Below, one piece after another: positions 3,051 to 21,822 of a DNA stretch of 64,000 bases. The notes under the pieces are model-generated. The model saw only the letters and a list, made by a program, of their open reading frames with translations. It had not been told where the DNA came from and did no database searches. Position numbers and translations under genes: made by a program. This DNA is from Candidatus Saccharibacteria bacterium 49-20 (GTDB taxonomy: Bacteria > Patescibacteriota > Saccharimonadia > Saccharimonadales > Saccharimonadaceae): NCBI GenBank assembly GCA_001897295.1, contig MKSN01000001.1:672141-736140 (forward strand), in the 5' to 3' direction. Within the stretch, counting starts at the first letter, position 1; each line of letters begins with the position of its first letter.

Positions 3051-3166
3051 CCCAAAATACTTCTAGTGTTTCTGAGCGACATCTGCAACCCAAGTTGAGC
3101 CGGGCGCAGAGGCCCCGGCAAAACGTGGCGTGAAGCCGTCCGAAGAAACTCTAGAAGTGTTTTGGG
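3051..3166. repeat. 116-bp element with 23-bp terminal inverted repeats (2 mismatches) and an internal GC hairpin; bidirectional terminator or MITE-like element
   Basis: The left arm cccaaaatacttctagtgtttct (3051-3073) pairs with the right arm agaaactctagaagtgttttggg (3144-3166). An inner hairpin gccggg...cccggc sits around 3099-3119. The element exactly fills the gap between the convergent xer and PilX-like genes. Confidence 0.6.
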
Positions 3167-3172
3167 TTACAG

Positions 3173-4429: not shown

Positions 4430-5163
4430 TAAACCCTATTCCCCGCCCTAATGACAAGGCTAAATTGTTTTACATTACAGTATCCAGTATCGGCACCAGC
4501 CTGCCCTGCGTTCAAACACGAAAGTTGGTCGGTTGCCATTGTCGCGTTCTCCCCAGACCCAAGCACGTACTCAAAGGTATAGAGTCGCTCGTTCGTCGTG
4601 CTGTCATAGGCAGAACTCGTCGTACTTAAAGTAATCTTATTGATATTCATTTTGTAATCACCCGCCGAAACGAGTTCCTGCGTCTGCGCCACGTCCGCCG
4701 AGCGCACGTTCTTGTAGGTCAGAGCCCCGAGAGCATTTACTGAACAATATAATTTTGCCGCGTCAGGCACCTTCACCAGGTGCACTTCTCGAGTGTGAGA
4801 GGTATTTGTTTCCGTGCCGTACCAGACAAGGTTTGAGTCTGTCGGGTTGCCGGTTGCAGGTGTTTGGAGTGCTTTGCCGTTATTCCAGATATAGGTGTAG
4901 TTGCCAAGGCAGATGCGCCCACCCGCGCTCGTGGTGCGGTAATCAGTCGCCAGCGTAATCGCCTCTACTGAAGAAAGTGACTTACGGAAATCAGCCGAGA
5001 TATCACGCGATACTTGATTCACCTCTTTGAGCGAGAGGCCCTTGCGATAAATCGTACCGATTTGAATCACCGTCATCGCGATCCCAAGCAGCAGCACCGC
5101 GATAAAGCTCATCGCGAGCATGAGTTCAATAATGGTAAATCCCTTTTTAGCCGCGTGGTTCAT
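4429..5163 (-). CDS. type IV minor pilin (prepilin-type N-terminal cleavage/methylation domain)
   Basis: Class III signal KKG|FTIIELMLAMSFIAVLLLGIAM with Glu at +5. Confidence 0.8.
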   Translation of the reverse strand: MNHAAKKGFTIIELMLAMSFIAVLLLGIAMTVIQIGTIYRKGLSLKEVNQVSRDISADFRKSLSSVEAITLATDYRTTSAGGRICLGNYTYIWNNGKALQTPATGNPTDSNLVWYGTETNTSHTREVHLVKVPDAAKLYCSVNALGALTYKNVRSADVAQTQELVSAGDYKMNINKITLSTTSSAYDSTTNERLYTFEYVLGSGENATMATDQLSCLNAGQAGADTGYCNVKQFSLVIRAGNRV

Positions 5164-5779
5164 AAAGCCTCACAATTGTTCCTATATTCATTGGTGTCTT
5201 CAACCCCGGACCGTCCCAGCAGGCGCGAATATGGAAATCGGTGTAGCCCGTATTCTGCTGGTTCACATCAGCGCTTGAACCCGAGCGAATTGGCTCTACC
5301 CAAATACCCTGACTCTGCGTAAGGTTTGATCCAGTATAGACGAGCTTCGCGTAGACATCTGGGTATTTGTACGTCGCTGTCGTACTGAGTGTTGCAGTCT
5401 TTGGGTTGACGATAATACTTCCTGTCGGTCGAGTACCACAAGGTTGCGTACCAAACTTAGTCGCCGCACGAATGCCATTGTCGTAGTTGTCTTGTGCCTG
5501 CGCCACTACTTTAGCGTACTCGGCCGCAGGACCAGTTGCTGAAGCAAGGTTAATGCCCGCATAGTAGGCTTGAACATACGAGTCGTGCATAAAGCGAAGC
5601 GCTTCGGCCTGGCTGTCGATCTCTTGGCGTACCTGGGTGAGCTCAAGTGAGCGCTGCGATGCCGCCGTACCTTGATTCATAAGTGAAATGGCCGACACGA
5701 CAATCAGGCTAAAGACGGTTACTGCAAAGAGCACCTCGATGATAGTATCGCCCCTTTGGCGCCTACGAATCCCTAACAT
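5147..5779 (-). CDS. type IV minor pilin-like protein (atypical +1 residue)
   Basis: RG|[24 protein letters not shown] keeps Gly-1 and Glu+5, but +1 is Asp rather than Phe/Met. Overlaps both neighbouring pilin genes. Confidence 0.62.
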
Positions 5780-6579
5780 TGTGACGGTGTCCCCGCAAGG
5801 TCATTCGTACGCACCTCGATCGCGCTGGCTGAAGTTGCAAACGATGAAATATAAATACCACTATCCCCACCTACCGTAAGGCCACCAGAAGACACGCAGA
5901 GCGTTCGAGCAGCCTGTCCCGGCTTAGTGTTTCCCGCAACAAGCAGGTTCGTGAAGGTAGACTGATTAATTGCGTTCTTCGCCGGTACAGAGTCGCTTGT
6001 AAAGGTATACATCATGCCTGAATCTGGTGAGCGAATAAACAAAATGCCAATCCTACGTGGTGATGATGCGCCGGTGACAGCGACATCTTGCTGCTTGGTT
6101 GGGTCGGAGTTGGCCTTCGCCCACGCGATAGACGTACCCCACTCGAGCTGACGCTCGTCAACTTGCGTGTTTGAAGCGCTCAGTGCGTAGTTGCTGCGAA
6201 GTTTATTGACATCACTTCCCGTTGAGCCCGTCCCTCGGTCTACTGCAAGTACGCTATAGATTGAAATGTCCTGGCCTTCGATGCGCATGTACTTACCTAC
6301 GAGGAAACAGTCGCTCTGTCCCCTAAACTCGTTGCCGCCAGAAACAGAATTCGCGTTATTGTCACACGACCAAGAATTGTCGCGTCCATTCTGGACGTTC
6401 GAGAGCTCTGAGTACTGTGCCTGAAGGAGTGACTTGAAGCTCTCGGTCGAATCACGATACCGCTGCACGTTAAGTGAGGCCCCTGCGCCCGCAATCATGC
6501 CAATAATCAAGAAGCCCGTTACCGCGAGGAAGAGCATTGTCTCGATAATCGTAAACCCTTTAGATGCCCGGATGCCCAT
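5773..6579 (-). CDS. type IV minor pilin
   Basis: SKG|[20 protein letters not shown] class III signal peptide. Confidence 0.8.
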
Positions 6580-6610: not shown

Positions 6611-7504
6611 TTAAATACCTAGTGTTGCAAGATACCAATCAAGAATGTGCCACCCGATAAACCATGCCAAAATCGTACCCGAAATTAACATCGGTCCGAA
6701 CGGGATATGCGAAGTACGCTCCACCTTCTTCATCGCAAGCAGCGGAATCACAATAAGGCAGCCGATGAAGTTCGCAAGGAACAGCGCCACGCCCGCGAGC
6801 TGCCAGTCAACCAAGATCAGCCCCAGGCCCACGCCAAGCTTTACATCACCAAACCCAACCCAGCGGCCCTGAGAAATCGCATAGAGCACTGCATAGAGCC
6901 CCGAGAGAAGCCCTACTGCGCCAATTGCAGTCAGGATTGTACCACCAATATCCTGCGTCTCAGCCGCCGAAACACCCACAATACCAAGCCCTACTACGGC
7001 GAGCGCAATCACAAAGCTGTCAGGGAGCAAGAACCACTTCAGGTCATAGGCAAACAATACCGCCATAATGACGCCTGCGGCGAGCCACAATACGAAATGC
7101 GCAATCTCGAGGCCAGTGGTGACCCCACCTGGCCAGAACGCGTACGACAGCACGAAAAACGCAATCGTTCCGAGCTCCATAAGTAATTCAAACTTACCGA
7201 TTGGGTGTTTACACTTACGGCAACGGCCCCTAAGCGATAGCCAGCTGATGACTGGGATCAGATCATACCACTTGAGCTCGTAACCACACTCCAAGCAACG
7301 CGAGCGATCCTGCATAGTCTTTTTTCCAAGTAGCTTTTTCAGGCGCGAGTATTCCTTGTGATCATACGGCTCTTTCGCCGCCTTATCGGCCTGCAGCTGC
7401 CTTGCTCGAAGCCGCCATACCGTTGCACCCGCAAAACTACCGAAACATGCGCCAACGAGCACCAGCGCCAAGTACACAACAAATTCATTCATAAGCACCA
7501 TCAT
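6611..7504 (-). CDS. pilD: prepilin peptidase (A24 family, PilD)
   Basis: N-terminal Cys-rich segment [33 protein letters not shown], multiple TM segments, and GFGDVKL and PFGPML Asp-box regions. Confidence 0.92.
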
Positions 7505-7574: not shown

Positions 7575-8060
7575 CTAGGTGTCGAGACAGTAACCAGACT
7601 TGTTACCACCTTCAAGTTGTGTCACGGTTGCGAATTGACGAGATGTACCCGCAGTAATTGTTACAGAACCGTTCACTCCATTAGAGCCACACTTCATACC
7701 CTTGTAGACACGGATGGTGCCGTCAGGAATCGTGTAAGTACCTGCAGTTGCCGGGTTTACCACGGTCACAGTGTTGATGTTGTTTGACAGCTTAGCGAAG
7801 GTCTTATTGGTACCAGTACCAGTTGCTTCGAGTTGGTTGTCCATGTTCGCGGTAGTTGGGAACGTACCACGGTTGTTATTGGCGTATGTTGTTACTGCTG
7901 AAGCCACAGAACCTACGTCACTCTTACGAGCCGTGTCGCGTTGGCCACTCTGAAGCGCTGGGAGTGCCACGAAGACCATCAAGAAGATTAGACCCGCGAT
8001 AGCAAGCACCAAGACAACCTCGATGATTGTGAATCCTTTATTTTGTTTTACGAAGTTCAT
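7575..8060 (-). CDS. pilA: major type IV pilin
   Basis: MNFVKQNKG|FTIIEVVLVLAIAGLIFLMVFVALPALQ, 161 aa, with a C-terminal Cys pair (KCGS...GYCLDT). Start placed at ATG 8060, preceded by AAAGGTGGG. The ORF-track start at 8081 would add 7 residues. Confidence 0.85.
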   Translation of the reverse strand: MNFVKQNKGFTIIEVVLVLAIAGLIFLMVFVALPALQSGQRDTARKSDVGSVASAVTTYANNNRGTFPTTANMDNQLEATGTGTNKTFAKLSNNINTVTVVNPATAGTYTIPDGTIRVYKGMKCGSNGVNGSVTITAGTSRQFATVTQLEGGNKSGYCLDT

Positions 8061-8141
8061 TTGGGTTAGCCCACCTTTCATATGAACATTAATTCGGTTA
8101 AGCTTATACTAAACCACTTTTTTTACGTTGTCTAGCTCTTT

Positions 8142-9353
8142 TTAGACGCTAATACCGTTCACCAAGCTATAGATTGGGAATAGAATTGCGCCCACCATTC
8201 CTCCCGCGACAACCGCGAGGACAACCATGAGAATTGGCTCAATAGCCGTTGAAATGGTGCGAATTTGTTCGTCGAGCTCGTCTTCGTATACTTGGGCAAC
8301 CTTACCCATCATTTCGTCGATCTTACCCGACTGTTCACCAATACGAATCATCTGCGATACAAGTGGTTCAATAAGCTCTTCTGGTTCAAGTGCAGTCGAA
8401 AGCGCCTTACCGCCCTGCACCTTATCTGCAGCGCGTACAATCGCCGCTTCAAGCAAGGTGTTGTTAATAGCGTGGCTCGTGACCTTGAGGGTGTCGAGCA
8501 TGCTCACACCCGTACTAAGAAGGGTCTGTGCAGTACGCGCAAAGCGCGCCATGTAGAGCTTCGAGAACATCTTACCGAATAACGGCACTTTAAGCTTAAA
8601 GGTGTCCTTAAACTTAATACCATTCTCGGTCTTCATGAACTGCACGAGGAAGAAAATACCAATACCGAGGACGATTGCCACGAGCCACCAGAAGCCTGCC
8701 AAGAAGTTCGCCATCTTCACCATGATGTCAGTCAGGACTGGAAGTGGCTTTCCAAGGTCGTCATACAGCTTTTCCACCTGTGGAACAACCGTGAACAACA
8801 TGAAGGCCATCACACCACCAATCACAAAGAGGACAATCATTGGGTACATCATGGCACCACGAATACGGCCCGCAACGGCAGCGTCTTTTTCTTGCTGGTT
8901 TGCAATGCGCTGGAGCGATTCATCGAGCGTACCCGACAACTCACCTGCTGCAATAAGCGAAAGGAAGACTTCGTTAAACACCTTTGGGTGCTTTGCGAAT
9001 GAGTCAGAAAGCGAGCGACCACCCTCAACCGAGACAGAGATATCTTCGACAACCGCCTGAAGCTGCTTGTTTTGCGTTTGATCCTTCACGGTATGAAGGC
9101 TCTGGCTAAGCGGCAACCCTGCGCCAATCAAGGTTGCAAGCTGACGCGTAAAGACAACCTTATCTTTCGTACCAATACGGCCATTGATGCGGCTCATGAA
9201 GCTTCCGTCACCAATTTGCTCTTTGACGTTCAGTGGCACGAAGCCCTGCTTAATCAGCAGGCGTGCAGCAGCGGTTTCAGAGTCGGCCTGAATAGTCGAC
9301 TTTACAACCTTATTGGTCGCCTGATCCCTTGCTTCATAGGTAAATTTTTTCAC
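8142..9353 (-). CDS. pilC: type IV pilus platform protein PilC (GspF family)
   Basis: 403 aa with two GspF-type repeats and three TM segments. Lies in pilB-pilT-pilC context. Confidence 0.93.
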   Translation of the reverse strand: MKKFTYEARDQATNKVVKSTIQADSETAAARLLIKQGFVPLNVKEQIGDGSFMSRINGRIGTKDKVVFTRQLATLIGAGLPLSQSLHTVKDQTQNKQLQAVVEDISVSVEGGRSLSDSFAKHPKVFNEVFLSLIAAGELSGTLDESLQRIANQQEKDAAVAGRIRGAMMYPMIVLFVIGGVMAFMLFTVVPQVEKLYDDLGKPLPVLTDIMVKMANFLAGFWWLVAIVLGIGIFFLVQFMKTENGIKFKDTFKLKVPLFGKMFSKLYMARFARTAQTLLSTGVSMLDTLKVTSHAINNTLLEAAIVRAADKVQGGKALSTALEPEELIEPLVSQMIRIGEQSGKIDEMMGKVAQVYEDELDEQIRTISTAIEPILMVVLAVVAGGMVGAILFPIYSLVNGISV

Positions 9354-9356
9354 CTG

Positions 9357-10424
9357 TTATCCCCTCATAAGCCTTTCGAATTCAACAAGGTCAACGGCAA
9401 ACTCACGCGCATTGTCGTAGGTTACCGTACCAGCCTGCACGAGGCTTGCGAGTGTACGGTCCATGGTCTGCATCCCCTGCTCTGCCCCGGTTTGAATAAT
9501 CGCGTCGAGCTGGTGGCTCTTACCCTCACGAATAATATTGCGGACTGCTGGGTTGGCGATAAGAATTTCCGCCGCTACCACGCGACCGCCGCCAATTGCA
9601 GGGACGAGACGCTGCGAACAAATCGCCATCAAGATGTTTGAAAGCTGCGCACGAATCTGTGGCTGCTGGTGAGGAGGGAACACGTCAATCATACGGTCAA
9701 TCGACTGCGCCGCAGAGTTAGTGTGCAGTGTTGCGAACACAAGGTGTCCGGTTTCTGCAATCGTAATCGCCGCAGAGATAGTTTCGAGGTCACGCATCTC
9801 ACCAATCAACACGACGTCTGGGTCTTGGCGAAGGCTCGAACGAAGCGCCGCGCTAAATGAGTAGGTGTCGTAGTGCACTTCGCGCTGCACAATGACCGAC
9901 TTCTTTGACTTGTGGGTAAACTCAATTGGGTCTTCGATGGTAATAATGTGGGCCGACTTTTCAGTGTTGATCTTGTCGACAAGTGCCGCAAGTGTGGTCG
10001 ACTTACCTGAACCGGTTGGACCAGTCACAAGCACGAGACCGCGTGGATATTCAGCAAATCCCATTACTACAGATGGCATACCGAGCTCGGTCACCGACTT
10101 AATTTCGTTAGGAATGAGACGAAGCGCAGCCGCAAGATTACCGCGTTCGTGGAAGGCGTTTACACGGAAGCGTCCGAGTGTACCAAAGGCGAATGAAAAG
10201 TCGAATTCTTTGTCCTTTAGAAGGATCTGACGCTGGTCTTGGTCGAGAATAGCGAACACGAGTGTTTCAACACCCGCTTCATCCAAAGGGTTAAAGCCCG
10301 CAACTGGTACAAGCTGTCCGTCAATACGGAGCATTGGTGGCAAGCCCACCTGAAGGTGAAGGTCGGACGCGCGCCGCTTCACCACTTCTTCTAGCAATAC
10401 TTCGATTCGTAAGTTTTGATTCAT
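9357..10424 (-). CDS. pilT: twitching-motility retraction ATPase PilT
   Basis: 355 aa with Walker A GPTGSGKST, Walker B VVLIGEMRD and the PilT signature PAVRNIIREGKSHQL. Confidence 0.94.
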   Translation of the reverse strand: MNQNLRIEVLLEEVVKRRASDLHLQVGLPPMLRIDGQLVPVAGFNPLDEAGVETLVFAILDQDQRQILLKDKEFDFSFAFGTLGRFRVNAFHERGNLAAALRLIPNEIKSVTELGMPSVVMGFAEYPRGLVLVTGPTGSGKSTTLAALVDKINTEKSAHIITIEDPIEFTHKSKKSVIVQREVHYDTYSFSAALRSSLRQDPDVVLIGEMRDLETISAAITIAETGHLVFATLHTNSAAQSIDRMIDVFPPHQQPQIRAQLSNILMAICSQRLVPAIGGGRVVAAEILIANPAVRNIIREGKSHQLDAIIQTGAEQGMQTMDRTLASLVQAGTVTYDNAREFAVDLVEFERLMRG

Positions 10425-10437
10425 ATTGTGCCCACTC

Positions 10438-12201
10438 CTATGCTGTATCTGATGTAACGCGGTTAACCTCTTCTATTGTAGTGAGACCCGTTAACGCCTT
10501 TAGGTATCCGTCCTGTCGCATGGTAATCATCCCCTGCGATACGGCAAGTCGCTGAATTTCAGCACTCGTTGCCCGTTCGACGATAAGCTTTTGGATGTCC
10601 GTGTTCACATCCATCACTTCGTAAAGACCTGCACGACCAGTGTAGCCGTGTGGCGTTTGAGGGGTATCAATTCCTCTGACTAAAGTATAAGCGCTTTGGC
10701 CTGCTAATGGTAGGTCTTTATATCCCAAATCGGCAGAAACCTTTGCAACCTCTTCTTTTGTCTTTGGCAGAAGGTGCCCAACTGTGGCAAGAATGTTTTG
10801 CGTCTCGATTGGTGACGATTGGTACGTTTCGCGCTTATTCGCCACGCGACGCACAAGGCGCTGACCAATAATAGTATTCACCGTACTGGCAATAAGGAAC
10901 GGCTCGATATTCATATCAAGAAGACGCGGAAGCACACCTGCAGCCGAGTTGGTGTGCAGCGTACTAAACACAAGGTGTCCCGTAAGCGCCGCCTGGACAG
11001 CGAGTCCCGCGGTTTCGGCGTCACGGATCTCACCTACCATCACGACGTCCGGGTCCTGACGCAGAATTGAACGAAGGCCATTGGCAAACGTAAGTCCCAC
11101 TTCGGCATTTACCTGAATCTGGTTTACCCCTGCCATCTTATACTCAACCGGGTCTTCGAGGGTCACGATATTCACCGTATCGTCTTTAATTTCTTTAATG
11201 AGTGCATACAGACTGGTCGACTTACCTGAACCGGTAGGCCCAGAGGTCAGCACCATGCCGTTTGGACGCTTGACGCCGCGACGAATCACGCGCAGTGCAC
11301 GGCCCGCATATCCCATTTCCTCGAGGTCAAAGCTATTGCCTGACTTATCAAGAAGACGGATCACAATTTGCTCGCCCCATACCACTGGGCTAATGGCGAT
11401 ACGAAGGTCGACCTCTTTGTTCGCGACCTTGACGGCGAACTGACCGTCCTGCGGGATACGGTGTTCGTCAATTTTGAGGTTTGAAAGAATCTTCACACGA
11501 CTCACCAGCGCTGGCTCAATACTTTTTGGCAGCTGCATCACTTCACGAAGCACGCCGTCGACACGACAGCGAATCTTGAGCGCCGTCTCAAGAGGTTCGA
11601 CGTGGATGTCACTGGCACGAGACTTCACCGCGTACTCGAGAATCTTACTAAGGGCTTGGCTAATTGGTGAGTCTTGGACAATCGTCTTTACATCACTCGC
11701 CTCTTCCGCCTTCAGTTCATCCTGAGACGCCTTGGCGGCTTGGTCGACGCTCGAAAGGTCGGTTTTGTACTGGTCGAGTACGTGACGCACGCCTGCTTCC
11801 GAGGCCATGAAGACCTTCAGTGGACGCTGAATACGGTTTGCGAGGTAGTCAACCGCCTGGACGTTGTTTCCGTCAAGCATGGCAACCGCAAGACGGTTTT
11901 GCACTTCAGCCAAGGGCACGGCCATAAAGCGCTCCGCGATGTCCTCTGGAAGCAGCGCAAGGATATTCTGGTCAATGAGTGTGCTCGCGAGGTTTACATA
12001 CGGCACACCTGAAACCTGCGCAATGGCGTGCGTCAAAAGCTCATCATCAATAATGTCCTGATCGGTAAGTAAGCTAAAGAGCGGCTTACTCTCTTTTGCA
12101 GCCTGCTCTTTTGTCGCGGTAATCACGTCAGCAGCAACAAGCCCTTCATCAATCAGCAGGGCTATGAGCTTTTCTTGGATGTCGTCAGTGAGGAGTGCCA
12201 T
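10438..12201 (-). CDS. pilB: type IV pilus extension ATPase PilB (GspE family)
   Basis: 587 aa with an N-terminal GSPII/MshEN-like domain, Walker A SGPTGSGKSTSL, Walker B VVMVGEIRD and a His box (LVFSTLHTNSA). Confidence 0.94.
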   Translation of the reverse strand: MALLTDDIQEKLIALLIDEGLVAADVITATKEQAAKESKPLFSLLTDQDIIDDELLTHAIAQVSGVPYVNLASTLIDQNILALLPEDIAERFMAVPLAEVQNRLAVAMLDGNNVQAVDYLANRIQRPLKVFMASEAGVRHVLDQYKTDLSSVDQAAKASQDELKAEEASDVKTIVQDSPISQALSKILEYAVKSRASDIHVEPLETALKIRCRVDGVLREVMQLPKSIEPALVSRVKILSNLKIDEHRIPQDGQFAVKVANKEVDLRIAISPVVWGEQIVIRLLDKSGNSFDLEEMGYAGRALRVIRRGVKRPNGMVLTSGPTGSGKSTSLYALIKEIKDDTVNIVTLEDPVEYKMAGVNQIQVNAEVGLTFANGLRSILRQDPDVVMVGEIRDAETAGLAVQAALTGHLVFSTLHTNSAAGVLPRLLDMNIEPFLIASTVNTIIGQRLVRRVANKRETYQSSPIETQNILATVGHLLPKTKEEVAKVSADLGYKDLPLAGQSAYTLVRGIDTPQTPHGYTGRAGLYEVMDVNTDIQKLIVERATSAEIQRLAVSQGMITMRQDGYLKALTGLTTIEEVNRVTSDTA

Positions 12202-12219
12202 ATAAGCTAAGTGTCCTCC

Positions 12220-12444
12220 CTACTCGTTCGTGGGTGTAATCTGCACCTCTATGGCAGGGTTAATTGCATTTTGGTTGAAGATGTTTTGATCTGGAGGGGT
12301 TACCTCACTCTCGATGCGCTCAATTGACTTCACAGTCACCTCTTCGCTCTCAGAGCCATTGAAGATTCCGCGCGTTACAAAGAACGCGACCATCACACTC
12401 ACGACGGCAATAAGGATAATCATTGCTATATCGGTTTTTTTCAT
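12220..12444 (-). CDS. small single-pass membrane protein in the pilMNO-pilB interval
   Basis: 74 aa with one N-terminal TM (IAMIILIAVVSVMVAFFV). Its start overlaps the pilO stop by 4 nt, in the position PilP occupies in diderm clusters. No motif recognised. Confidence 0.5.
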   Translation of the reverse strand: MKKTDIAMIILIAVVSVMVAFFVTRGIFNGSESEEVTVKSIERIESEVTPPDQNIFNQNAINPAIEVQITPTNE

Positions 12445-13130
12445 CGAGGCACCTTCTTATCTTGGAGTTCAATTGTCTTTGCTGGTTCGTAGAATACTTT
12501 TCCGCGCACTGTCATTTGTGGCGTTCCCTGAATTTCAATACGAACTGAAGTTACCTGCACGGTACGGATTGAACGTTCGAGGTTCACGAGTACTTGCTTA
12601 AAGGCATCGAGTGAACCCTTTACTTGGAACTGGAATGTAATCTCGTTACCGGCTGCGTCGCCTTCTGCTGGCGCCGCTGCGTCGTCAGATGCCAGTGTTT
12701 CAACACCCACAATTGGGTCAACCTGTAGTGATTCAATCGAAAGCCCATCAATACCTACAAGCAGCTTGTTTTGCAGTGACGAACCAAATGCGAATGAGTT
12801 TGGCTCAGATGGGAGTGCGTCAAGAATTACCTGGAGCGCTTGGTCTTGCTCGTTTGCTTTTACGCTTGAGAGTGCCACATTCGTATCGAGTACACGGACT
12901 TGATCTTCAAGTTCTTTCACAACAGAGTTATTGTGTTCGAGCGTCGAGACAGTGTTTTGCTTTTCTGCGAGGACTTTCTCGTTGTAGATAAGCTTCTGTG
13001 CCATGAAGATACTTACCACCAGTGCTGAACCAACCAGCGCAGACGCAATCGCGATCCAAATGAACATCGTCTTGTTGGCGTTGGCGATTTGGGTTCGCTT
13101 ACGAATTGCTACATCATTACCTTGTTTCAT
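12441..13130 (-). CDS. pilO: PilO-like pilus alignment protein
   Basis: One TM followed by a coiled-coil segment (LIYNEKVLAEKQNTVSTLEHNNSVVKELEDQVRVLD), located directly after pilN. Start placed at ATG 13130 (TAG-t-ATG junction with pilN) rather than 13157. Confidence 0.6.
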   Translation of the reverse strand: MKQGNDVAIRKRTQIANANKTMFIWIAIASALVGSALVVSIFMAQKLIYNEKVLAEKQNTVSTLEHNNSVVKELEDQVRVLDTNVALSSVKANEQDQALQVILDALPSEPNSFAFGSSLQNKLLVGIDGLSIESLQVDPIVGVETLASDDAAAPAEGDAAGNEITFQFQVKGSLDAFKQVLVNLERSIRTVQVTSVRIEIQGTPQMTVRGKVFYEPAKTIELQDKKVPR

Positions 13131-13131
13131 A

Positions 13132-13848
13132 CTACAAATCCGTCGCCCTTTCCTCAAAGATCTTCCTTGGAATACCTAGGTAAGAGTCGGTGACGTTACC
13201 GTCAACACTGAGCTTAATTGCGATACCGCTAATATTTGGCGAGAAGGCTTTCTCTGCATAGGTAAATGTCAGCACAAAACGCAGGACCAAGTTGTTGTCG
13301 GCGTCCCTTCCGTAGCTCGTGTCGGTCACACTAATGTCGCTCGCGAGGTCGACGGTGGTTTGCTCTTCTGTTTCAGGTTCGGTGTAGGTCAGTGTTGCGC
13401 TATCAAGGGTCTTCTTAAAGAGCTCCATGCTGTCGTAGCCGCGAGTCTGGCCTTCAAGGCGAACGGTTTTCTCTTCTGCGTCGATAGTGATTTGTGACAT
13501 GCGTGCATCGTTTGGTGCCGGTGGCACAACTGCCGAAAGGATATCGAATACGCGTGAATCAACGTTCTTTGCGCTATTGAGCTCACTTACCTTGTTGAGT
13601 TGGTTCTGAATGGTCAAAATCTTCGAAAGGTCCTCTACCTTTGCAAGCTTTTCAGAACCTTCTTTGATTTGGCCGTCCAAAATTGCGCTGCGTACGTTTT
13701 GGGCACCAAAGACATAGGCCACCAATGCGACCACAAGACCCGCCGCGATAATACTCACAAGGATTGAGCTTGAAATAACGGTCGCGCGCATACGCTGCGC
13801 ACGGAGAAGCTCCTGCTTTACATCGGGGATGAGGTTAATTTCAATCAT
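13132..13848 (-). CDS. pilN: PilN-like pilus alignment protein
   Basis: MIEINLIPDVKQELLRAQR N-terminus (the INLLP-type PilM-binding motif), then one TM. Overlaps the pilM stop by 4 nt. Confidence 0.68.
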   Translation of the reverse strand: MIEINLIPDVKQELLRAQRMRATVISSSILVSIIAAGLVVALVAYVFGAQNVRSAILDGQIKEGSEKLAKVEDLSKILTIQNQLNKVSELNSAKNVDSRVFDILSAVVPPAPNDARMSQITIDAEEKTVRLEGQTRGYDSMELFKKTLDSATLTYTEPETEEQTTVDLASDISVTDTSYGRDADNNLVLRFVLTFTYAEKAFSPNISGIAIKLSVDGNVTDSYLGIPRKIFEERATDL

Positions 13849-14891
13849 ATACGCGTCTTCCTTTGCGCGAGGCCAATTGCCGCAGCATATTCTGTCGCAA
13901 CGGTCATAAGCTGCTGCTGGTCACCCTGTGACACGCGGACGCGCTGCCATGGGTTTGCAAGGCTCGACTGAATCCCAGTCTTACCGCTGACATATTCACC
14001 AAAACCAGGCACCACTGAACCGAAGCCGGAAAGCATAATGCCGCCTACTGGAGTGTTAGGGTAGCGAGTTTGGAAGAACTTGATTGACTTGATAAGTTCG
14101 ACTGCGAAGTTGTCGAGTGTACCTTCAATCGCGCGGTAGACCTGACCTTCAAGGCGGTCTGGCGCAAGACCAAACTTCAAAATGAACTGGCGCGCTTGGT
14201 CTTCTTGAACGTTAAGGTTTTGGACCGCAGCCTTAATAAGCGACTTAAGTCCCGTAGGAATCGTACGGACGAGTCGCGGTGCATCACCAAAGGTAATCGC
14301 AAGGTCGGTTGACTGCTCGCCCACATCGATAATAAGACGAGCATCCGCAACACCAGAAGGCAACAGTGAGCGGATCATCGCGAGTGGATCTGGTTCAGCA
14401 GCAATCACGTTAAGGCCGAGGCTCTCGACAAATTCGAGGCGCTCTTCAGCGTAGGTGTTTGAAGTACTTGCAATAAGGACTTCTTGCATCTTAGGGTCGT
14501 GCAGTGACGTACCGAGCAGCGCCCAGTCTACCTTCGCCTCGTTAACCGCCATAGGAATGTACTGATCAACTTGGTATTTGATGGTGTTTCGAAGTTCGTT
14601 TTCGGGCATGACAGGAACTTCAATCACAGTAGTGAAGGTCTTGCTTGAAGGGAGGCCGATCACCACGTTCTTCGTCTTAATACCGCTCTGCCCTACCGCG
14701 GTCATAATCACTTCGCCGAGTTTACGCATCGCTTCAGGTGAAGATGCGGCGGCAATTTTTTCATCGAGAGGCGCGTACCCAAAGTGAACGAGGTTCCATC
14801 CGTCAGACCCCGCAGGAGCTAGCTGAACAACACGAACAGCGTTCGTTCCTATGTCTAGTGCAAAAAAGTCGCCCACGCCATGTACTGCCAT
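13845..14891 (-). CDS. pilM: type IV pilus assembly ATPase-fold protein PilM
   Basis: Actin/HSP70-like fold motifs (FALDIGTNAVRVVQL, IIDVGEQSTDL, GIMLSGFGS). Start moved to ATG 14891 because the ORF-track ATG at 14903 lies inside the predicted -10 hexamer. Confidence 0.85.
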   Translation of the reverse strand: MAVHGVGDFFALDIGTNAVRVVQLAPAGSDGWNLVHFGYAPLDEKIAAASSPEAMRKLGEVIMTAVGQSGIKTKNVVIGLPSSKTFTTVIEVPVMPENELRNTIKYQVDQYIPMAVNEAKVDWALLGTSLHDPKMQEVLIASTSNTYAEERLEFVESLGLNVIAAEPDPLAMIRSLLPSGVADARLIIDVGEQSTDLAITFGDAPRLVRTIPTGLKSLIKAAVQNLNVQEDQARQFILKFGLAPDRLEGQVYRAIEGTLDNFAVELIKSIKFFQTRYPNTPVGGIMLSGFGSVVPGFGEYVSGKTGIQSSLANPWQRVRVSQGDQQQLMTVATEYAAAIGLAQRKTRI

Positions 14892-14901
14892 ATTGTCCCT
14901 C

Positions 14902-14930
14902 ATTATAGGAAAGCGTTAGCGGAATAGCAA
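14902..14930 (-). promoter_or_regulatory. sigma-70 type promoter for pilM operon (TTGCTA-17-TATAAT)
   Basis: The minus strand reads TTGCTAttccgctaacgctttccTATAATgagggacaatATG, with an exact 17-nt spacer. The -10 ends 10 nt before the ATG at 14891. Confidence 0.6.
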
Positions 14931-14952: not shown

Positions 14953-16782
14953 CTAGAAGCGCGGCGGAAGTTCTTTTGTCGTGACGGTCGGCAAACGGCC
15001 GGTTCCCGGGCTATAGCTTGTTGCCCAAATGTAGGCATCGGCGCGAAGGTTAAATACCTCGGCTGGGTCATCTGCGGCCGCGCCAGACCCCGCCCCTGCC
15101 GTACGGCGAAGCAGTAAGTGGTTGGCAGAAATTGGGCCGTTAATCGTCAGCTTGGTGTTACAAATAGTCGCGTTCACCGTGGTTGTTTGCGAAACCGCGC
15201 CCGCTCCACACGTATTAATGATGCCGTTTTGTGCAGCCGGTGACGTCGTGTCACTACCCACCGCGATGAGCCACGCATCAATGTTAGTGACCGCACTCGA
15301 AATAATGATATTCTTCGCAATAATCACGGCCTGCGGAATGTCTTCGACACTTGTCAGTGGAGTTGTCGTGTAGTTAATGTTGTTCGTAATTGTCACCGTT
15401 GTATTTGGCGCATTAATCACCACCCACTTCCCCGATCCAATTGCACTTCCACCCGTCACATATGCATTGGTCGCGTTCGAGGTGTAAAGGCGTGGCGCCG
15501 ATGGCGATGAGATAAGCGAGCTAAGGCTCACCGGGCTCGCCGCAGTACTCGCCGGTAAGTTAGGCGTTGCCGTCGAACCAGACGTCACAACTGGGAAGCG
15601 TGAAGCGATATTTGGTGCAATTGTACTGGTTGCGTAGCGCCCCTGCGTGACACCCGAGCCACAGGCGCTCGTGCCTGCATTCGAGAACGTGAGGTAATTA
15701 AGTGCACAGGTATTCACCGACCCGACACCCCCTACGAATCCAGAGCCTGATGACATACCTGTCACCGTACCAGTTGGAATGAGTGCGTATTCACCCCATG
15801 AGCCATAGTAACGTCCCGTATCGGCACGTGACACCGAAGTAACAATGTTTGAGGTACGCGATGCATTCGTTGCGGTGCCGCGACCCACAATTAGGTCACC
15901 GCCAATCACCTGAACCTTTGGCTTTTTGGCGACAATCACACAGGCGGCCGAGGATTCCGTCCAACCCGCGTTATCACGCCCTGCTGGAGAGGCACTCGTG
16001 GCTCTACAGAGCCGTCTTCCGAAGTCAGATGGCTGTACGGTATAGCTTGAGTTTGCCCCTGCACTTCCGCCTGGATCCGTACCAGACCCAAAGCCCCAGT
16101 CTGGACCAGCGCTATTCGTCCAGTCTCCCCTGTTTTGATAGTGCCACGTCACGTGACGCGTTGTGCGTCCCGGGCCGTTATTACTCACATAGTGAGTCCA
16201 GGTAATAGTGTCGCCTACCTCAGCCACGCTCATATTGGCACTTGAAGATACCGAGATAGTCCACGGGGTTTGCCCGTAACAGAACCACTCAAGGTTTGAA
16301 CCCCAAGTAAGACCTGACGTACCACTAATCCCCTGCGCAAGCGCTTCGTTATAGTAGTTGTGCACCTGGCTAATGCCCTCCGCACCGTAGTAGTGCGCAT
16401 TTGTATAGCCTGAGTACGGTGGCCCTTCGGAACTAATACCGTTATTTGCATCAAAGGCAAAGGCACGCTCAAGGCCGGCACCGTTACGCACCACATAAAT
16501 CCACACCGACTGCACATCGCGACAGATATTTTGCACCTCGCCCCAACTCCATCGGCGGCCAAGCGTCGTAAATCCGCCACTAGGCCCGCTGCCTGTGACA
16601 TCATATTTCTTCCATGCAAAGCCGTTGTCTGTACAGTAGTTTGTACACGCGCCAGACCCACCACCACCGGCGCCCTGACCGTGGACATTCGCCACAAAGA
16701 GAAAACCGCTCGCAAGCACAACGAGCCCACCTACCAGTGCAGCGTATCGAGCCCATTGACTACGCAGTATCAGCGATTTCAT
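14953..16782 (-). CDS. large secreted/anchored protein of unknown function, paralog 1 (DUF11/CARDB-like Ig segment plus beta-helix-like C-terminal part, ends PPRF)
   Basis: 609 aa with an N-terminal signal/anchor. Collinear with the 16851-18734 product through many identical blocks (GPSGGF, VWxYVVRN, TITWxH, KPKVxVxGG, VTGMxSGSGFxGG, GKWVVI, IIAKNIII, LTINGP, FNLRADAYxWA, PPRF-stop). Confidence 0.8.
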   Translation of the reverse strand: MKSLILRSQWARYAALVGGLVVLASGFLFVANVHGQGAGGGGSGACTNYCTDNGFAWKKYDVTGSGPSGGFTTLGRRWSWGEVQNICRDVQSVWIYVVRNGAGLERAFAFDANNGISSEGPPYSGYTNAHYYGAEGISQVHNYYNEALAQGISGTSGLTWGSNLEWFCYGQTPWTISVSSSANMSVAEVGDTITWTHYVSNNGPGRTTRHVTWHYQNRGDWTNSAGPDWGFGSGTDPGGSAGANSSYTVQPSDFGRRLCRATSASPAGRDNAGWTESSAACVIVAKKPKVQVIGGDLIVGRGTATNASRTSNIVTSVSRADTGRYYGSWGEYALIPTGTVTGMSSGSGFVGGVGSVNTCALNYLTFSNAGTSACGSGVTQGRYATSTIAPNIASRFPVVTSGSTATPNLPASTAASPVSLSSLISSPSAPRLYTSNATNAYVTGGSAIGSGKWVVINAPNTTVTITNNINYTTTPLTSVEDIPQAVIIAKNIIISSAVTNIDAWLIAVGSDTTSPAAQNGIINTCGAGAVSQTTTVNATICNTKLTINGPISANHLLLRRTAGAGSGAAADDPAEVFNLRADAYIWATSYSPGTGRLPTVTTKELPPRF

Positions 16783-16850
16783 ATTAGGTTAATCATAAGC
16801 CTTTTAGGGCTTCGCCGCAAGGTCTCGAGGCGAGTTTACACCCCTATAAA

Positions 16851-18734
16851 CTAGAACCTAGGGGGCACTTCAATAATCGAAGTTGTCTCAGCGCGATTGT
16901 TTACATCGAGTGATTTTGCCCAAAGATAGGCATCGGCACGAAGATTAAAGGATTCTGCAGATTGTGCGATTGTTGCGCCACTTTCTGCGCCAAACGTACG
17001 ATACAAAAGCAGTCGGTTCACCATCACGGGGCCGTTTATGGTCAGGTTCTTGTTACAATTCGCACCTCGCAGATCAGCCATTTTACTCACTGCGCCACAG
17101 GTCACCAACATGCCATCGTTGCCCGTACCACGCCCCACCAGCCAGGCGTCAACGCTTGTCACACTATCTTTAATAATGATATTTTTCGCAATAATAATCA
17201 CCTGCGGAATGTCGCGAATCGTCTTCAGCGCACCAGTTGCATACTCGATATTTTGATCAATATACACCGTATTGTCGGGCACGTGGATCACCACCCATTT
17301 GCCCTTCGGGATCTTCTCCGACGATGTAAGGTGGACTGCGTCTTTGCTTGTATATACTTTCGTGCTGTCGAGCGTCTTGATATCTGTTGAAGTAGGAGTC
17401 TTTAAGTCGGTCGCGCGGTCAGCCGAGAACCTAGCGGCAAGCGCACTCGCCTGCGACGATGAGGTACTGTACTTGCCTATTTGCTTACTATCGCATTTCG
17501 ATGAATCGTCAGTACGGTTATTTCCAAACGTAAGATAACTGACCGCACATAAATCGCCAGTCGTACGACCACCAGCAAATCCAGAGCCAGACGCCATACC
17601 CGTCACCAGCCCCTTACTTGCGATGCCATACTCAACCCACGATCCGTAGTACTTGCCGTCGCGGTAGCTTACAGCCGTATCAACTGAATTCGCGCGCACC
17701 TCGCCACCCAACACATGTACCTTTGGTCGCTTAATAATCAGCACACACTGCTCGTCCGATTTGGTCGAACCACCAGTATTTTTCGCAGGTTCGGCGTAGG
17801 TGTAGCGGCACAGATTCTTGCCGTAATCGGATGGTTTTACAAGATACGTTGACGTCTTGGAGTCCTTCGCGTCCTTCGCTTTGCGAGCGGTAAACTTCCA
17901 GCTCTCTGCGGTGCCCGTGCCAAGACCCTGCTCGTTATCGGCTCGCCAGGTAATGTCGACGTTCGTCTGATTTGCACCATTATTTTTTATGGTGTGCGCC
18001 CAGGTAATTGTTTCGCCCGGCTCGGCATACTCGCGGTCACGCGCCGTAGTCACCGTGACACTCCATGGTGGATTATCACTCCAACAAAACCACCCCACAC
18101 TCCAGCCCCAAGAGGCTCGATCGCCGCCCGCGCCTTCATACTTAGCGCGAACCGAACGCACCACCTCGTCAGCCGTGCCATAGCCACTAGCTCCGCCGTA
18201 CCGTGCCGAGCCGTCATGCACACCATCCGCATTGTATTCATATGGGTCACCACCCGCGCCTGGTCGATCTATCCACCAGTCTTTTGACGGATACTTCGCA
18301 GCACCACCATTGTTGTTGTCGGGGTTGAAGTTATCCCTGTAATACTCGTAGGTGTTTTGGAACGTAAAGCTCTTCTCCTTACCCGTTGAGTTGCGCACCA
18401 CATACACCCATACCTTGTTCGAGCCCGCCGCACTACACTTCCCCGCAACGCTATTCTTATCGTTCACGTTTCCCCAGTAGCCCGAGTAAAAACCGCCCGA
18501 AGGCCCAGTGGTATCAGACACATCATAGAGCTTCCAACCATGCCCCTTGCTTGTCCAGTAGTCTCCGCTTGCGCCGCTCGAAGTTCCCGGATTTCCCGAT
18601 ACAAATTCAGCGTGCGTTGAAGAGGTTGAAAGCAAGGTGGCGATAGCTACGACGGTCACCGCAATAACCGCACCCCCAATAAGTACGGTCGGCTGCCTCC
18701 ACTGCCCACGATGAAATGGCATCTTCATATGCAT
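16851..18734 (-). CDS. large secreted/anchored protein of unknown function, paralog 2
   Basis: 627 aa with N-terminal TM/signal (VLIGGAVIAVTVVAIATLL). Shares the block structure of 14953-16782 and ends EVPPRF-stop. The exact start is uncertain (three ATGs at 18734, 18728 and 18722). Confidence 0.8.
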   Translation of the reverse strand: MHMKMPFHRGQWRQPTVLIGGAVIAVTVVAIATLLSTSSTHAEFVSGNPGTSSGASGDYWTSKGHGWKLYDVSDTTGPSGGFYSGYWGNVNDKNSVAGKCSAAGSNKVWVYVVRNSTGKEKSFTFQNTYEYYRDNFNPDNNNGGAAKYPSKDWWIDRPGAGGDPYEYNADGVHDGSARYGGASGYGTADEVVRSVRAKYEGAGGDRASWGWSVGWFCWSDNPPWSVTVTTARDREYAEPGETITWAHTIKNNGANQTNVDITWRADNEQGLGTGTAESWKFTARKAKDAKDSKTSTYLVKPSDYGKNLCRYTYAEPAKNTGGSTKSDEQCVLIIKRPKVHVLGGEVRANSVDTAVSYRDGKYYGSWVEYGIASKGLVTGMASGSGFAGGRTTGDLCAVSYLTFGNNRTDDSSKCDSKQIGKYSTSSSQASALAARFSADRATDLKTPTSTDIKTLDSTKVYTSKDAVHLTSSEKIPKGKWVVIHVPDNTVYIDQNIEYATGALKTIRDIPQVIIIAKNIIIKDSVTSVDAWLVGRGTGNDGMLVTCGAVSKMADLRGANCNKNLTINGPVMVNRLLLYRTFGAESGATIAQSAESFNLRADAYLWAKSLDVNNRAETTSIIEVPPRF

Positions 18735-19940: not shown

Positions 19941-19970
19941 GCCACTTCACCACTCGTTTCGACCGCACCC

Positions 19971-20011
19971 GCGGACCGCCTCACCCCGAAGGGCTAATTG
20001 AGGCGGTCCGC
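19971..20011 (-). terminator. 13-bp perfect GC-rich hairpin spanning the stop codon of the sortase-like gene (no U-tract)
   Basis: gcggaccgcctca (19971-19983) pairs with tgaggcggtccgc (19999-20011). No U-run follows on the minus strand. Terminator function is inferred. Confidence 0.5.
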
Positions 20012-20767
20012 GAGACGGGACTCGAGGTGTTCATTGGAGGCAGACTCTTCCACCAGCGGCTCCGGGTACTGGACCTGAAGCACGACGGCAGTATTCTGCG
20101 TGGTGTGACCATCTTGGCGCGGGCCGTCCCGGTTGCAGGTCACGAAGACCCACTTGCCAGGCTGTGGCTCGGGGCTGAACACCCGTCCGTCCTGCGAGAA
20201 GTCCGACTTACTGATGTCGAACACCTCTTGGACGACGAGCGTCACCGTTTCGCCACAGGCAGTCACCGTCACAACGTCACCCGGCTTAAAGTCGGTGATG
20301 TGATCGAACACCGCGCCAACCCCGAGATCGAGGTAGGCGTGGCCGTACACATACACCGCATCTTCAGCCTGCGTCGACATGACGCTGTAGATGTTGTCGT
20401 GACGGTAGTAGCCAGAGTACCAGACGGCCTGCGAGACTTCGGGCGGATTGACTCCACCTTCAGCCTGCGCCTGCTCGTATGTGTACTCCCCCACCTCCGC
20501 CTCCAGTCCAATGGACGGGGCGGAAATGTGAGCCGCAGTGCATGCGGCCGGCCTGGGTGTGGGCGTTGGGGTCGGCGTGGGTGCTTCCGTCGGGGTTGCC
20601 GACGGAGTGGGCTCACGCGTCACCGTCGGACTTGGCGAAGGATCCGCAGCGCTCGTGGGGGGCGTGCCGAACGTCAGGTATGCACCTGCCGCAAGCGACA
20701 CGACCCCCAGAGCAACTACGAGGACCGCCAAGACGCGACGCACACGACGACGCGTCTTGCGAGCCAT
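19994..20767 (-). CDS. sortase-like transpeptidase (class E/F-like architecture), high-GC
   Basis: N-terminal TM, a Pro/Thr/Ala linker, then sortase-like blocks: ISAPSIGLEAEV, VYVYGHAY (His), AVFDHITDFKPGDVVTV and WVFVTCNRD (TC Cys). The Arg usually found about 12-14 residues after the Cys is not obvious (GHTTQNTAVV). Third codon positions are strongly G/C in this frame. Confidence 0.65.
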   Translation of the reverse strand: MARKTRRRVRRVLAVLVVALGVVSLAAGAYLTFGTPPTSAADPSPSPTVTREPTPSATPTEAPTPTPTPTPRPAACTAAHISAPSIGLEAEVGEYTYEQAQAEGGVNPPEVSQAVWYSGYYRHDNIYSVMSTQAEDAVYVYGHAYLDLGVGAVFDHITDFKPGDVVTVTACGETVTLVVQEVFDISKSDFSQDGRVFSPEPQPGKWVFVTCNRDGPRQDGHTTQNTAVVLQVQYPEPLVEESASNEHLESRLADRLN

Positions 20768-21717
20768 CAGCGACGGATCGCCGAGAGCTTGGACCGACGC
20801 ACGAACGCCATGACGACGATCGTGATGAACAGCACGCCGACACCCATCAGGCTGTAGCCGAGGACCGAGGGGCCCTCGACGACGTCACCCGTGTGGGCGG
20901 CCGGCGGGGCCGGCTTGACGGGCGTCTGCACGACCGGCTGCTGAACGACGGGCGCCTGGACCTCGGGGGTCGTGGGCGTCTCGCCGGACGGCGGCGTGGT
21001 TCCACCGTCGCCACCACCGTCACCCGGGTTGGGGCACGGGATGGTGACGTCGTAGGAGTTGCCGACCGGGCTGTCCGGGATGAACACCCCGAACACGTAG
21101 GTACCGCACGGCGACCACGGGAACGAACCCGACTGAGTCAGCGAGCCACCCTCGGTGAACGTGAGCTCCTTCGCGACGTCCTGCGCCCCGTAGCCGATGA
21201 TCACGGTCTGCGGGAGCGGGACGTTCTCCGGGCCCAGGTTGACGACGTAGTCGACACCCGAACCGTCCGCAGACGGCGTGAGCGTGGCGCTGACCGTCGG
21301 GCTGACGACCGGCGGGGTCGCGTCGCAGGTCCCGTCGAAGGTGAACTCGTTGACGAACAGGGTCTCGGCCGTGGTGTTGAGCCAGTACGAGACGGTGAAC
21401 GTCGACGGGAACGTGTCGACGGGAACGGTGACCGAGCGCGTGAACGGCGAGATGACGCCGACGGCGTAGTTCTCGACGTTCAGGCTGGCACCGTTGACGC
21501 TGAAGCCGCCCTGCATCTCCGCGTCGATGCCCACGGTGGGGACCGAAACGGTGAAGGTGGCGACGTTGTCGGCACAGGTGCCCGAGTTGCTGACCTGGCC
21601 GATGGCCGCCCAGGAATCGGGCGGCGCGGCACTGGCCGCGGTAGCGGGCACGATGACGGACAGGGACACGGCGGCAGCAGCCGCCAGGGCCGCCATGAGG
21701 CGGTTGCGCTTGCGCAT
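20767..21717 (-). CDS. cell-wall-anchored surface protein with AAHTG sorting-like signal, high-GC
   Basis: Signal peptide MRKRNRLMAALAAAAAVSLSVIVPATAASA, then two Cys-pair-containing beta-rich segments and a Pro-rich stalk. AAHTG (nt 20887-20901) is followed by a hydrophobic helix and an RRSKLSAIRR tail. The stop overlaps the sortase start (TGATG, 20765-20769). Confidence 0.7.
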   Translation of the reverse strand: MRKRNRLMAALAAAAAVSLSVIVPATAASAAPPDSWAAIGQVSNSGTCADNVATFTVSVPTVGIDAEMQGGFSVNGASLNVENYAVGVISPFTRSVTVPVDTFPSTFTVSYWLNTTAETLFVNEFTFDGTCDATPPVVSPTVSATLTPSADGSGVDYVVNLGPENVPLPQTVIIGYGAQDVAKELTFTEGGSLTQSGSFPWSPCGTYVFGVFIPDSPVGNSYDVTIPCPNPGDGGGDGGTTPPSGETPTTPEVQAPVVQQPVVQTPVKPAPPAAHTGDVVEGPSVLGYSLMGVGVLFITIVVMAFVRRSKLSAIRR

Positions 21718-21822
21718 GTTGTCTCCAAATGGTGATGTGGCACACCGGAGTATCCGGTGGGCTATGTGATGGCACCCTCCCTATTCTGTAAGGGGTGGTG
21801 TGTTTCCATGACACTAGTGGGG

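Follow-up and report, generated by a model that had tools for sequence, protein, structure and literature searches.

We describe a family of exported proteins linked to the type IV pili of Saccharibacteria, represented by two tandem genes of an environmental member, Candidatus Saccharibacteria bacterium 49-20. These genes, paralogs A and B, lie immediately upstream of the pilus gene pilM in a stretch of 64,000 nucleotides (nt) that we refer to as the window (GenBank assembly GCA_001897295.1, contig MKSN01000001.1, positions 672,141 to 736,140 of the forward strand). We find that A and B belong to a large, previously undescribed, pilus-linked family of exported proteins with a conserved C-terminal module (C-module) and a 14-residue tail. 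From their architecture and gene order, we put the probability at about 0.5 that A and B are non-homologous analogues of PilC/PilY1, which would dock on the minor-pilin tip via this tail and present host-binding domains.

The two genes and their parts are as follows, in window positions, with residues counted in amino acids (aa) and model confidence given as the predicted local distance difference test (pLDDT).

16851..18734, minus strand: paralog A, 627 aa; signal peptide, N-domain, immunoglobulin (Ig)-like domain, conserved C-module and tail (RAETTSIIEVPPRF)
18609..18734, minus strand: Sec-type signal peptide of A by hydropathy, about aa 1-42, hydrophobic core aa 17-35, THA/EF
~17736..18062, minus strand: Ig-like domain of A, the counterpart of that of B
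16896..17735, minus strand: conserved C-module of A, aa 334-613, from the alignment with B
16854..16895, minus strand: conserved 14-residue tail of A (RAETTSIIEVPPRF), from the alignment with B and the logo of family tails
14953..16782, minus strand: paralog B, 609 aa; architecture as in A; tail RLPTVTTKELPPRF
16678..16782, minus strand: Sec-type signal peptide of B, about aa 1-35, VHG/QG, followed by a Gly-rich linker
15928..16275, minus strand: Ig-like (CARDB/DUF11-like) beta-sandwich of B, about aa 170-285, pLDDT 90-97
14998..15927, minus strand: conserved C-module of B, aa 286-595, starting KKPKVQVIGGDL
14956..14997, minus strand: conserved 14-residue tail of B (RLPTVTTKELPPRF), the proposed docking peptide, from the logo of family tails

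A and B match over their full lengths (36% identity, 51% positives, E 6e-101, BLASTP). This confirms the original prediction, made from the sequence of the window, that they are collinear paralogs, and all the short identical blocks that it listed are present in the alignment (G..WK.YDV, GPSGGF, VW.YVVRN, WFC, G[DE]TITW.H, PSD.G..LCR, KPKV.V.GG, YYGSW.EY, VTGM.SGSGF.GG, YLTF.N, GKWVVI, IPQ..IIAKNIII, DAWL, LTINGP and FNLRADAY.WA). The start codon of A is ambiguous (M1, M3 or M5), and the alignment with B starts at M3. The N-terminal signal claimed for both proteins is also evident: each has a single strongly hydrophobic segment, at residues ~15-35, preceded by a positively charged start. Hydropathy of the full proteins reveals no second hydrophobic or membrane-type segment, and the signal regions contain neither a prepilin motif nor a lipobox. 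Gly, Ala, Ser, and Thr together make up 38-45% of residues, as reported for exposed TM7x pilins. Both proteins end in E[LV]PPRF followed by the stop codon, as had been read from the sequence.

Searching with B, we obtained 126 homologs, which all come from Saccharibacteria or Patescibacteria and are labelled “hypothetical” or “exported protein of unknown function.” Many of these align to the C-terminal ~60% of B alone. The C-module, which spans ~320 aa at the C-terminal end of family members, matched 2466 representative clusters (50% identity) at E<=1e-3 and 673 at E<=1e-30 (HMMER). In every match listed, the module reaches the last residue of the protein, while the N-terminal part varies between ~270 and ~810 aa. 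An N-terminal hydrophobic segment is present in 222 of 234 members. The prepilin motif G/[FM]T[LI][IV]E was found in the first 45 residues of none of the 234, and A and B have no N_methyl match in Pfam; we therefore reject A and B as type IV pilins or modular minor pilins. The N-terminal parts of the family are diverse. The N-region of A and B recurs in only 14 of 157 loci, and Pfam searches on the N-terminal parts of 53 long members detected a ricin-type lectin domain in one, DUF7507 in three, and DUF11 in one. N-terminal lectin domains are thus not supported as a general feature of the family.

The tail follows the 14-residue consensus R-[LIVA]-x-T-V-x-T-x-E-L-P-P-R-[FYL] (logo of 122 members), with its last six residues at ~3.5-4.3 bits each. 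A variable linker of 8 residues connects the tail to the final helix of the module (NLR.DAY.WA). Conservation of the PPRF end therefore extends well beyond the pair: the last six residues fit E[LIVM][PA][PV][RK][FYL] in 227 of 240 members, among which ELPPRF occurs 154 times and ELPPRY 46 times. We scanned the window and the fetched loci (2.45 Mb; 3495 open reading frames, ORFs, of at least 80 aa) for a relaxed version of the tail pattern. Because 163 of the 164 ORFs that end in it are family members, the tail is a family-specific element and not a shared sorting signal. In addition, none of 234 members has a hydrophobic 18-mer in its last 60 residues. The proteins end at ELPPRF, without the hydrophobic helix and charged tail of a sortase (LPXTG-type) or PEP-CTERM-like signal. 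Of the two roles that the original prediction offered for the tail, the general sorting tag is thus rejected, with the tail confined to this family within the 2.45 Mb and no transmembrane segment adjoining it, and a docking tag is the better reading.

We find that the family gene is closely associated with the type IV pilus cluster. Among 77 species-level loci (one genome per species, selected by a family peptide pattern), 72 have it as the nearest gene before pilM, codirectional with it, at a median distance of ~52 nt. A further locus is cut off before the position of pilM, and two tandem copies occur in seven loci. The reverse selection comprised 80 metagenome loci picked by similarity to the window's PilM alone; here the family gene lies upstream of pilM in all 65 loci with enough upstream sequence (8 with two copies). 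Copy number per locus is one to two. The position of the pair immediately upstream of pilM on the same strand (49 nt between B and pilM), with the linkage to pilus genes proposed on that basis, is therefore the usual arrangement among these loci.

In gut-associated Saccharibacteria, the linkage is to minor pilins instead. Four independent contigs (L080, L161, L162, and L163) carry a divergent member with the tail RELAPRY, RELSPRY, or REVAPRY. Four minor-pilin orthologs follow it, immediately in L080 and L163, one gene away in L162, and three genes away in L161. These orthologs stand in the same order as in the window, and pilM is not alongside. They match the window's four minor pilins at E 1e-17 to 1e-56, most strongly for a 418-aa PilX/GspK-like pilin (E 1e-53 to 1e-56). 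Known pilY1 and mshQ genes are located with minor pilin genes, and because the gut-lineage gene order matches this placement, we count it in favor of a tip adhesin. Family genes away from pilM often adjoin pilins; only the copies of L056, L059, and P0004 (L001) are without pilus neighbors.

Several of the displaced copies have contexts of their own. Copies with a RELPVRF-tail subtype occur away from pilM in L056 (8774..11053 and 12142..14361) and L063 (8744..11026). In L056, each copy is preceded by a 210-268-aa gene without a Pfam match whose product ends YDKVMKKLNG[VI]KV, and trigger factor and ClpP follow; in L063, two type IV pilin genes lie ~1 kb downstream of the family copy. The contig of L059 has a high GC content and was binned as Thermomicrobiales; its family member (8494..10539; 681 aa, tail KELPPRY) follows a gene for a small TPR protein and has no pilus gene in its vicinity. 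Its presence there reflects either a binning error or transfer outside Saccharibacteria. The small genes beside the members in L056, L063, L059, L161, and L162 had no Pfam match except for the TPR repeats in L059. Directly upstream of the family member in L162 is a gene (2963..5158) for a 731-aa exported protein that ends TTAIHVADIPIRA, loosely resembling the family tail (T.....[DE][IL]P.R.). BLASTP does not match this protein to B at E<=1e-3, but a highly diverged paralog is possible. Among named homologs, P0004 (53% identity; L001, Ca. Microsaccharimonas metagenome-assembled genome GCA_049293555.1) is closest to B; its gene is convergent with ychF and apart from the pilus cluster. Since a different member, P0071, precedes pilM on a separate contig of the same genome, this genome has a rearranged ychF-family-pilM block.

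No other protein of the pilus cluster evolves as fast or is as modular as the family. Median identity to the window is 92% for PilT, 87% for PilB, 80% for PilM, 74% for PilC, 57% for PilO, and 52% for PilN, and falls to 41% for the family C-module.

We modeled full-length B with AlphaFold2 (56-sequence alignment, mean pLDDT 76.8). The model has four parts: the signal peptide with the Gly-rich linker, an N-domain, a beta-sandwich, and a large beta-rich C-terminal region. The linker (aa 25-54) is disordered (pLDDT <50), and the N-domain (aa ~55-170) is a small alpha/beta domain of moderate confidence. Only the sandwich was matched in the PDB by Foldseek. It resembles the CARDB structure 3idu (E 2.5e-3, template modeling (TM) score 0.68), with 2kl6, RbmA, and TRAP-beta likewise matched at E ~1e-3. 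At the sequence level, A and B remain under the thresholds of DUF11 (PF01345; E 0.046, 14.5 bits vs 24.6) and TIGR01451 (14.5-14.9 bits vs 24, NCBIfam), whereas some relatives pass or approach those of DUF11/DUF7507. The original prediction of a DUF11/CARDB-type Ig domain thus holds for the fold, with the Pfam score under threshold. This domain is the sole part of a known fold class, and it is a spacer, not the part that defines the family.

Modeled alone (the C-terminal 330 residues of B, 92 sequences), the C-module is predicted to form a compact fold with high confidence (pLDDT 84.8, predicted TM score 0.85). Foldseek found no significant neighbor for it in the PDB (best E 4.6, no PilY1 entry) and nothing under E 1.8 in BFVD, and the family profile matched no PDB sequence at E<=10. 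A beta-helix or beta-solenoid fold, which had been suggested as an adhesin core, is not supported: 5kdk, 6qvi, 6eio, and PL6 lyases are matched at E 4.6-10, with probability <=0.05 and TM <=0.35. Apart from the sub-threshold DUF11 and TIGR01451 matches, A and B have no Pfam or NCBIfam family. These searches, with those of PDB sequences and of the C-module by Foldseek, returned no characterized match, in keeping with the earlier statement that no described family was recognizable. The final 4-7 residues of B have pLDDT <50 in both models.

Two 2026 studies report that PilC/PilY1 is held at the pilus tip by its last ~10-12 residues. That tail is disordered in monomer models and binds a PilK-type minor pilin by beta-strand addition. 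The hallmarks of PilC/PilY1 are a large, non-pilin protein exported via signal peptidase I (SPI), with a variable N-terminus and a conserved C-terminus. The family shares all of these, together with a short tail that is modeled at low confidence, paralogs with a common tail (as in PilC1/PilC2), and genetic linkage to minor pilins (in the same cluster in ~140 loci and nearby in the four gut contigs). It is not, however, part of PilC/PilY1 (IPR008707, PF05567), whose beta-propeller is absent: there is no Pfam match at E<=1, no PDB match, and no PilY1 in Foldseek, and thus no similarity in sequence or fold. It further differs in residing in a single-membrane instead of a double-membrane bacterium, in having a nearly invariant tail where PilC/PilY1 plugs differ between systems, and in the usual position of its gene upstream of pilM. 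MshQ of the Vibrio cholerae MSHA pilus provides a precedent for non-homologous PilY1 analogues. It is large, unrelated to PilY1, and linked to minor pilins, and the same C-terminal docking has been proposed for it, although that docking is itself an AlphaFold prediction only. MshQ comes from a double-membrane bacterium, and we liken it to the family by description, not sequence. In type IVb pili, non-pilin cargo is exported via a terminal peptide that binds tip pilins.

On this basis, A and B would serve the type IV pilus of Saccharibacteria as Sec-exported accessory proteins, distinct from pilins, that dock on the minor-pilin cap through the conserved module and the tail. The tail would most likely donate an added beta-strand to the 418-aa GspK/PilX-like minor pilin. 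This would leave the Ig-like spacer and the fast-evolving N-terminal part on display at the pilus tip, where they could bind the surface of the host bacterium, and two paralogs with a common tail might provide alternative tips for one machine. Such a role would resemble that of modular minor pilins, which carry ligand-binding modules on the pilus tip (Streptococcus sanguinis PilB/PilC and Saccharibacterial PilX1/PilX2; the 418-aa protein is the window's own example). Those proteins have a class III signal peptide and a pilin domain, whereas the family has neither. The family itself, the conservation of its tail, the export signal, the modular variability, and the linkage of the gene to pilM and to minor pilins are established here. 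The place at the tip, the docking partner, and beta-strand addition are inferred, as are association with the pilus at the protein level and an adhesin function, both suggested by the original prediction.

Several observations weigh against a tip adhesin. Because the C-module lacks the beta-propeller of PilY1 and resembles no structure that we could detect, the analogy is one of architecture and synteny only. No Pfam match was obtained for the N-terminal region of 48 of the 53 long members, and most genomes carry the family gene on the pilM side of the cluster, with ~10 kb between it and the minor pilins. According to a recent paper, the type IVa pili of single-membrane bacteria have no PilC/PilY1 and rely on modular pilins. 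The window's PilX/GspK-like pilin already has a lectin-like insert of its own, and its Southlakia ortholog, SEML1_0116, was parsed as a GspK-like pilin domain with a galactose-binding-like insert.

Southlakia and other published pilus loci supply the remaining counterarguments. In Ca. Southlakia epibionticum, of the oral clade, ychF occupies 102732-103880 and pilM starts at 103892 (Table S1, Cell 2023 paper). The spacing is 11 nt, and no gene fits at that position. The 13-gene pilus cluster of this organism is nevertheless essential, as are several non-pilus adhesins (transposon sequencing, Tn-seq). Because Southlakia has no gene in the ychF-pilM slot while its pilus cluster is still essential, the family is probably accessory, and a core machine component is unlikely. 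Lineages without the gene at the pilM position assemble, and depend on, the pilus of the same 13 genes, and a PilC-like requirement of the family for pilus biogenesis is unlikely; unlike PilC/PilY1, it would be dispensable for the pilus in at least one such lineage, whose cluster is presumably functional. The Southlakia PilX/GspK-like protein is also shorter (384 aa vs 418), with no sign of a compensating strand. The published pilus loci of TM7x, Southlakia, and TM7i are described without the family gene, which is not listed in the 13-gene TM7x locus credited with twitching motility.

The strongest alternative, although an unlikely one, is that A and B are cell-surface adhesins or host-recognition proteins held in the envelope, with the C-module binding wall or membrane, and that the pilus is co-regulated with them but does not include them. 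A variable N-terminus with a conserved C-terminus is also typical of wall-anchored surface proteins. The distance from the minor pilins in most genomes, P0004 beside ychF and the L056 and L059 copies without pilus neighbors, and the essential non-pilus adhesins of Southlakia all fit this explanation. However, we detected no known wall-binding domain in A or B (SLH, LysM, WxL, or LPXTG plus transmembrane segment). Co-regulation alone hardly explains the near-universal adjacency to pilM and the switch to minor pilins in gut lineages, and a near-invariant, low-confidence end peptide after a variable linker suggests a protein partner, not the wall. It is more doubtful that the family acts within the pilus machine as a gate, cork, or wall-passage factor at the exit site, where it would take over, in a single-membrane cell, some of what secretin-associated proteins do in double-membrane bacteria. 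PilY1 has been reported in the secretin like a cork before assembly, the family gene is the first of the pilM-N-O operon in ~140 loci, and the C-module is compact and conserved with a fold that has no known relative. Yet the gene is absent beside the essential Southlakia cluster and is not listed in the TM7x twitching locus. The family also evolves fastest in the cluster and varies in N-terminus and copy number, unlike core machine parts, and has no membrane anchor besides the signal peptide.

It is very improbable that A and B are secreted enzymes or toxins that target the host envelope (a beta-helix polysaccharide lyase-like protein, for example), exported with the aid of the pilus and carrying the tail as an export or docking signal. 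The weak Foldseek matches to beta-solenoids, which include PL6 alginate lyases and a hemolysin TPS domain, are all non-significant. No catalytic family was found for A or B by Pfam, NCBIfam, or PDB sequence search, and most of the invariant family residues are Gly, Pro, Cys, Trp, or hydrophobic ones, suggestive of structural roles. The export of cargo by a terminal peptide in type IVb pili and the life of Saccharibacteria on host cell walls nonetheless lend this explanation some plausibility. We give least credence to a self-polymerizing or donor-strand subunit, whose tail would join copies head to tail or attach them to the Pam pili newly reported from Saccharibacteria. A terminal aromatic residue after a beta-prone stretch, as in the family tail, recalls the C-termini of chaperone-usher subunits and counts toward this possibility. 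The Pam pilins of Ca. Mycosynbacter amalyticus (PamA/PamB) are chaperone-usher-like, Sec-exported, Ig-like proteins encoded as two divergent paralogs, and the family is similarly a Sec-exported, Ig-like surface protein specific to the Candidate Phyla Radiation (CPR). Pam pili are assembled by donor-strand exchange: their pilins (38.7 and 55.3 kDa) have a nine-strand N-terminal domain and a truncated Ig C-terminal domain, the donor strand is the inter-domain linker, and the operon lies beside ATP synthase genes with PapD-like chaperones. We therefore reject identity of A and B with Pam pilins, from which they differ, by published descriptions, in size, domain plan, donor-strand position, and neighborhood.

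The pilus cluster of the window continues downstream of B, with ychF divergent and upstream of A. Its genes are given here in order of transcription; the four minor pilins form the candidate docking partner set.

13845..14903, minus strand: pilM, 49 nt downstream of B; PilM_2 (Pfam) on the L002 ortholog
13132..13848, minus strand: pilN, downstream of pilM
12441..13157, minus strand: pilO-like gene, downstream of pilN
10438..12201, minus strand: pilB; Pfam family on the L002 ortholog
9357..10424, minus strand: pilT; Pfam family on the L002 ortholog
8142..9353, minus strand: pilC; Pfam family on the L002 ortholog
7575..8081, minus strand: major pilin; Pfam family on the L002 ortholog, N_methyl match
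6611..7504, minus strand: prepilin peptidase; Pfam family on the L002 ortholog
5773..6579, minus strand: minor pilin, 268 aa
5147..5779, minus strand: minor pilin, 210 aa
4429..5163, minus strand: minor pilin, 244 aa
3173..4429, minus strand: PilX/GspK-like minor pilin, 418 aa
14930..14902, minus strand: promoter-like TTGCTA-17-TATAAT in the B-pilM spacer; weak evidence

The promoter that the original prediction assigned to pilM is present as a sequence match, but the first in-frame ATG of the pilM ORF (14903) shares bases with its -10 hexamer, and promoter-like matches in the region are close to chance (6 vs 3.6 expected). As weak evidence, it says little about separate transcription of pilM. 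A second ATG at 14891 is preceded by GAGGGA, a possible ribosome-binding site, and the true start of PilM may be M5 (MAVHG...). The 240-nt gap between the pilO-like gene and pilB (12201-12441) corresponds to a 74-aa gene in L002 (5170..5394) and to the essential 228-nt SEML1_0107 of Southlakia, and contains a small conserved pilus-cluster gene that was missed by ORF listing at >=80 aa.

Between ychF and a TlyA-like methyltransferase lies an island of high GC content (19950-21800; 0.60-0.71 vs 0.45-0.52 in the flanks) with two ORFs on the minus strand (19994..20767 and 20767..21717). The island encodes a sortase (Pfam PF04203, E 2e-9; the nearest NCBIfam model is class F, far under cutoff) and a 316-aa exported protein whose end consists of AAHTG, a hydrophobic helix, and an RRSKLSAIRR tail and which resembles a sortase substrate. 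The composition of the island points to recent gain from a donor of high GC content, for example the actinobacterial hosts. A weak sortase match also occurs near ychF in the related locus L001.

Attachment to host bacteria is the way of life of Saccharibacteria and other members of the CPR, and their type IV pili are indispensable to it. Studies so far have dealt with oral strains alone. Here, we present a previously undescribed family that occurs in essentially every environmental-lineage cluster examined and is the most variable protein of that cluster. If it is a tip adhesin, it would be a prime candidate for the determination of host range. We consider it quite possible, though at somewhat less than even odds, that single-membrane Saccharibacteria have a tip adhesin built on an unseen fold, with an ELPPRF-ended plug into the minor-pilin cap and swappable N-domains that set the host. 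The near-invariant tail makes this idea directly testable. If true, it would overturn the view that single-membrane type IVa tips are decorated by modular pilins alone, and would supply a universal 14-residue handle by which cargo could be displayed on CPR pili or the pili blocked. The “C-terminal plug” principle of PilC/PilY1 would then extend to a single-membrane phylum via an unrelated protein.

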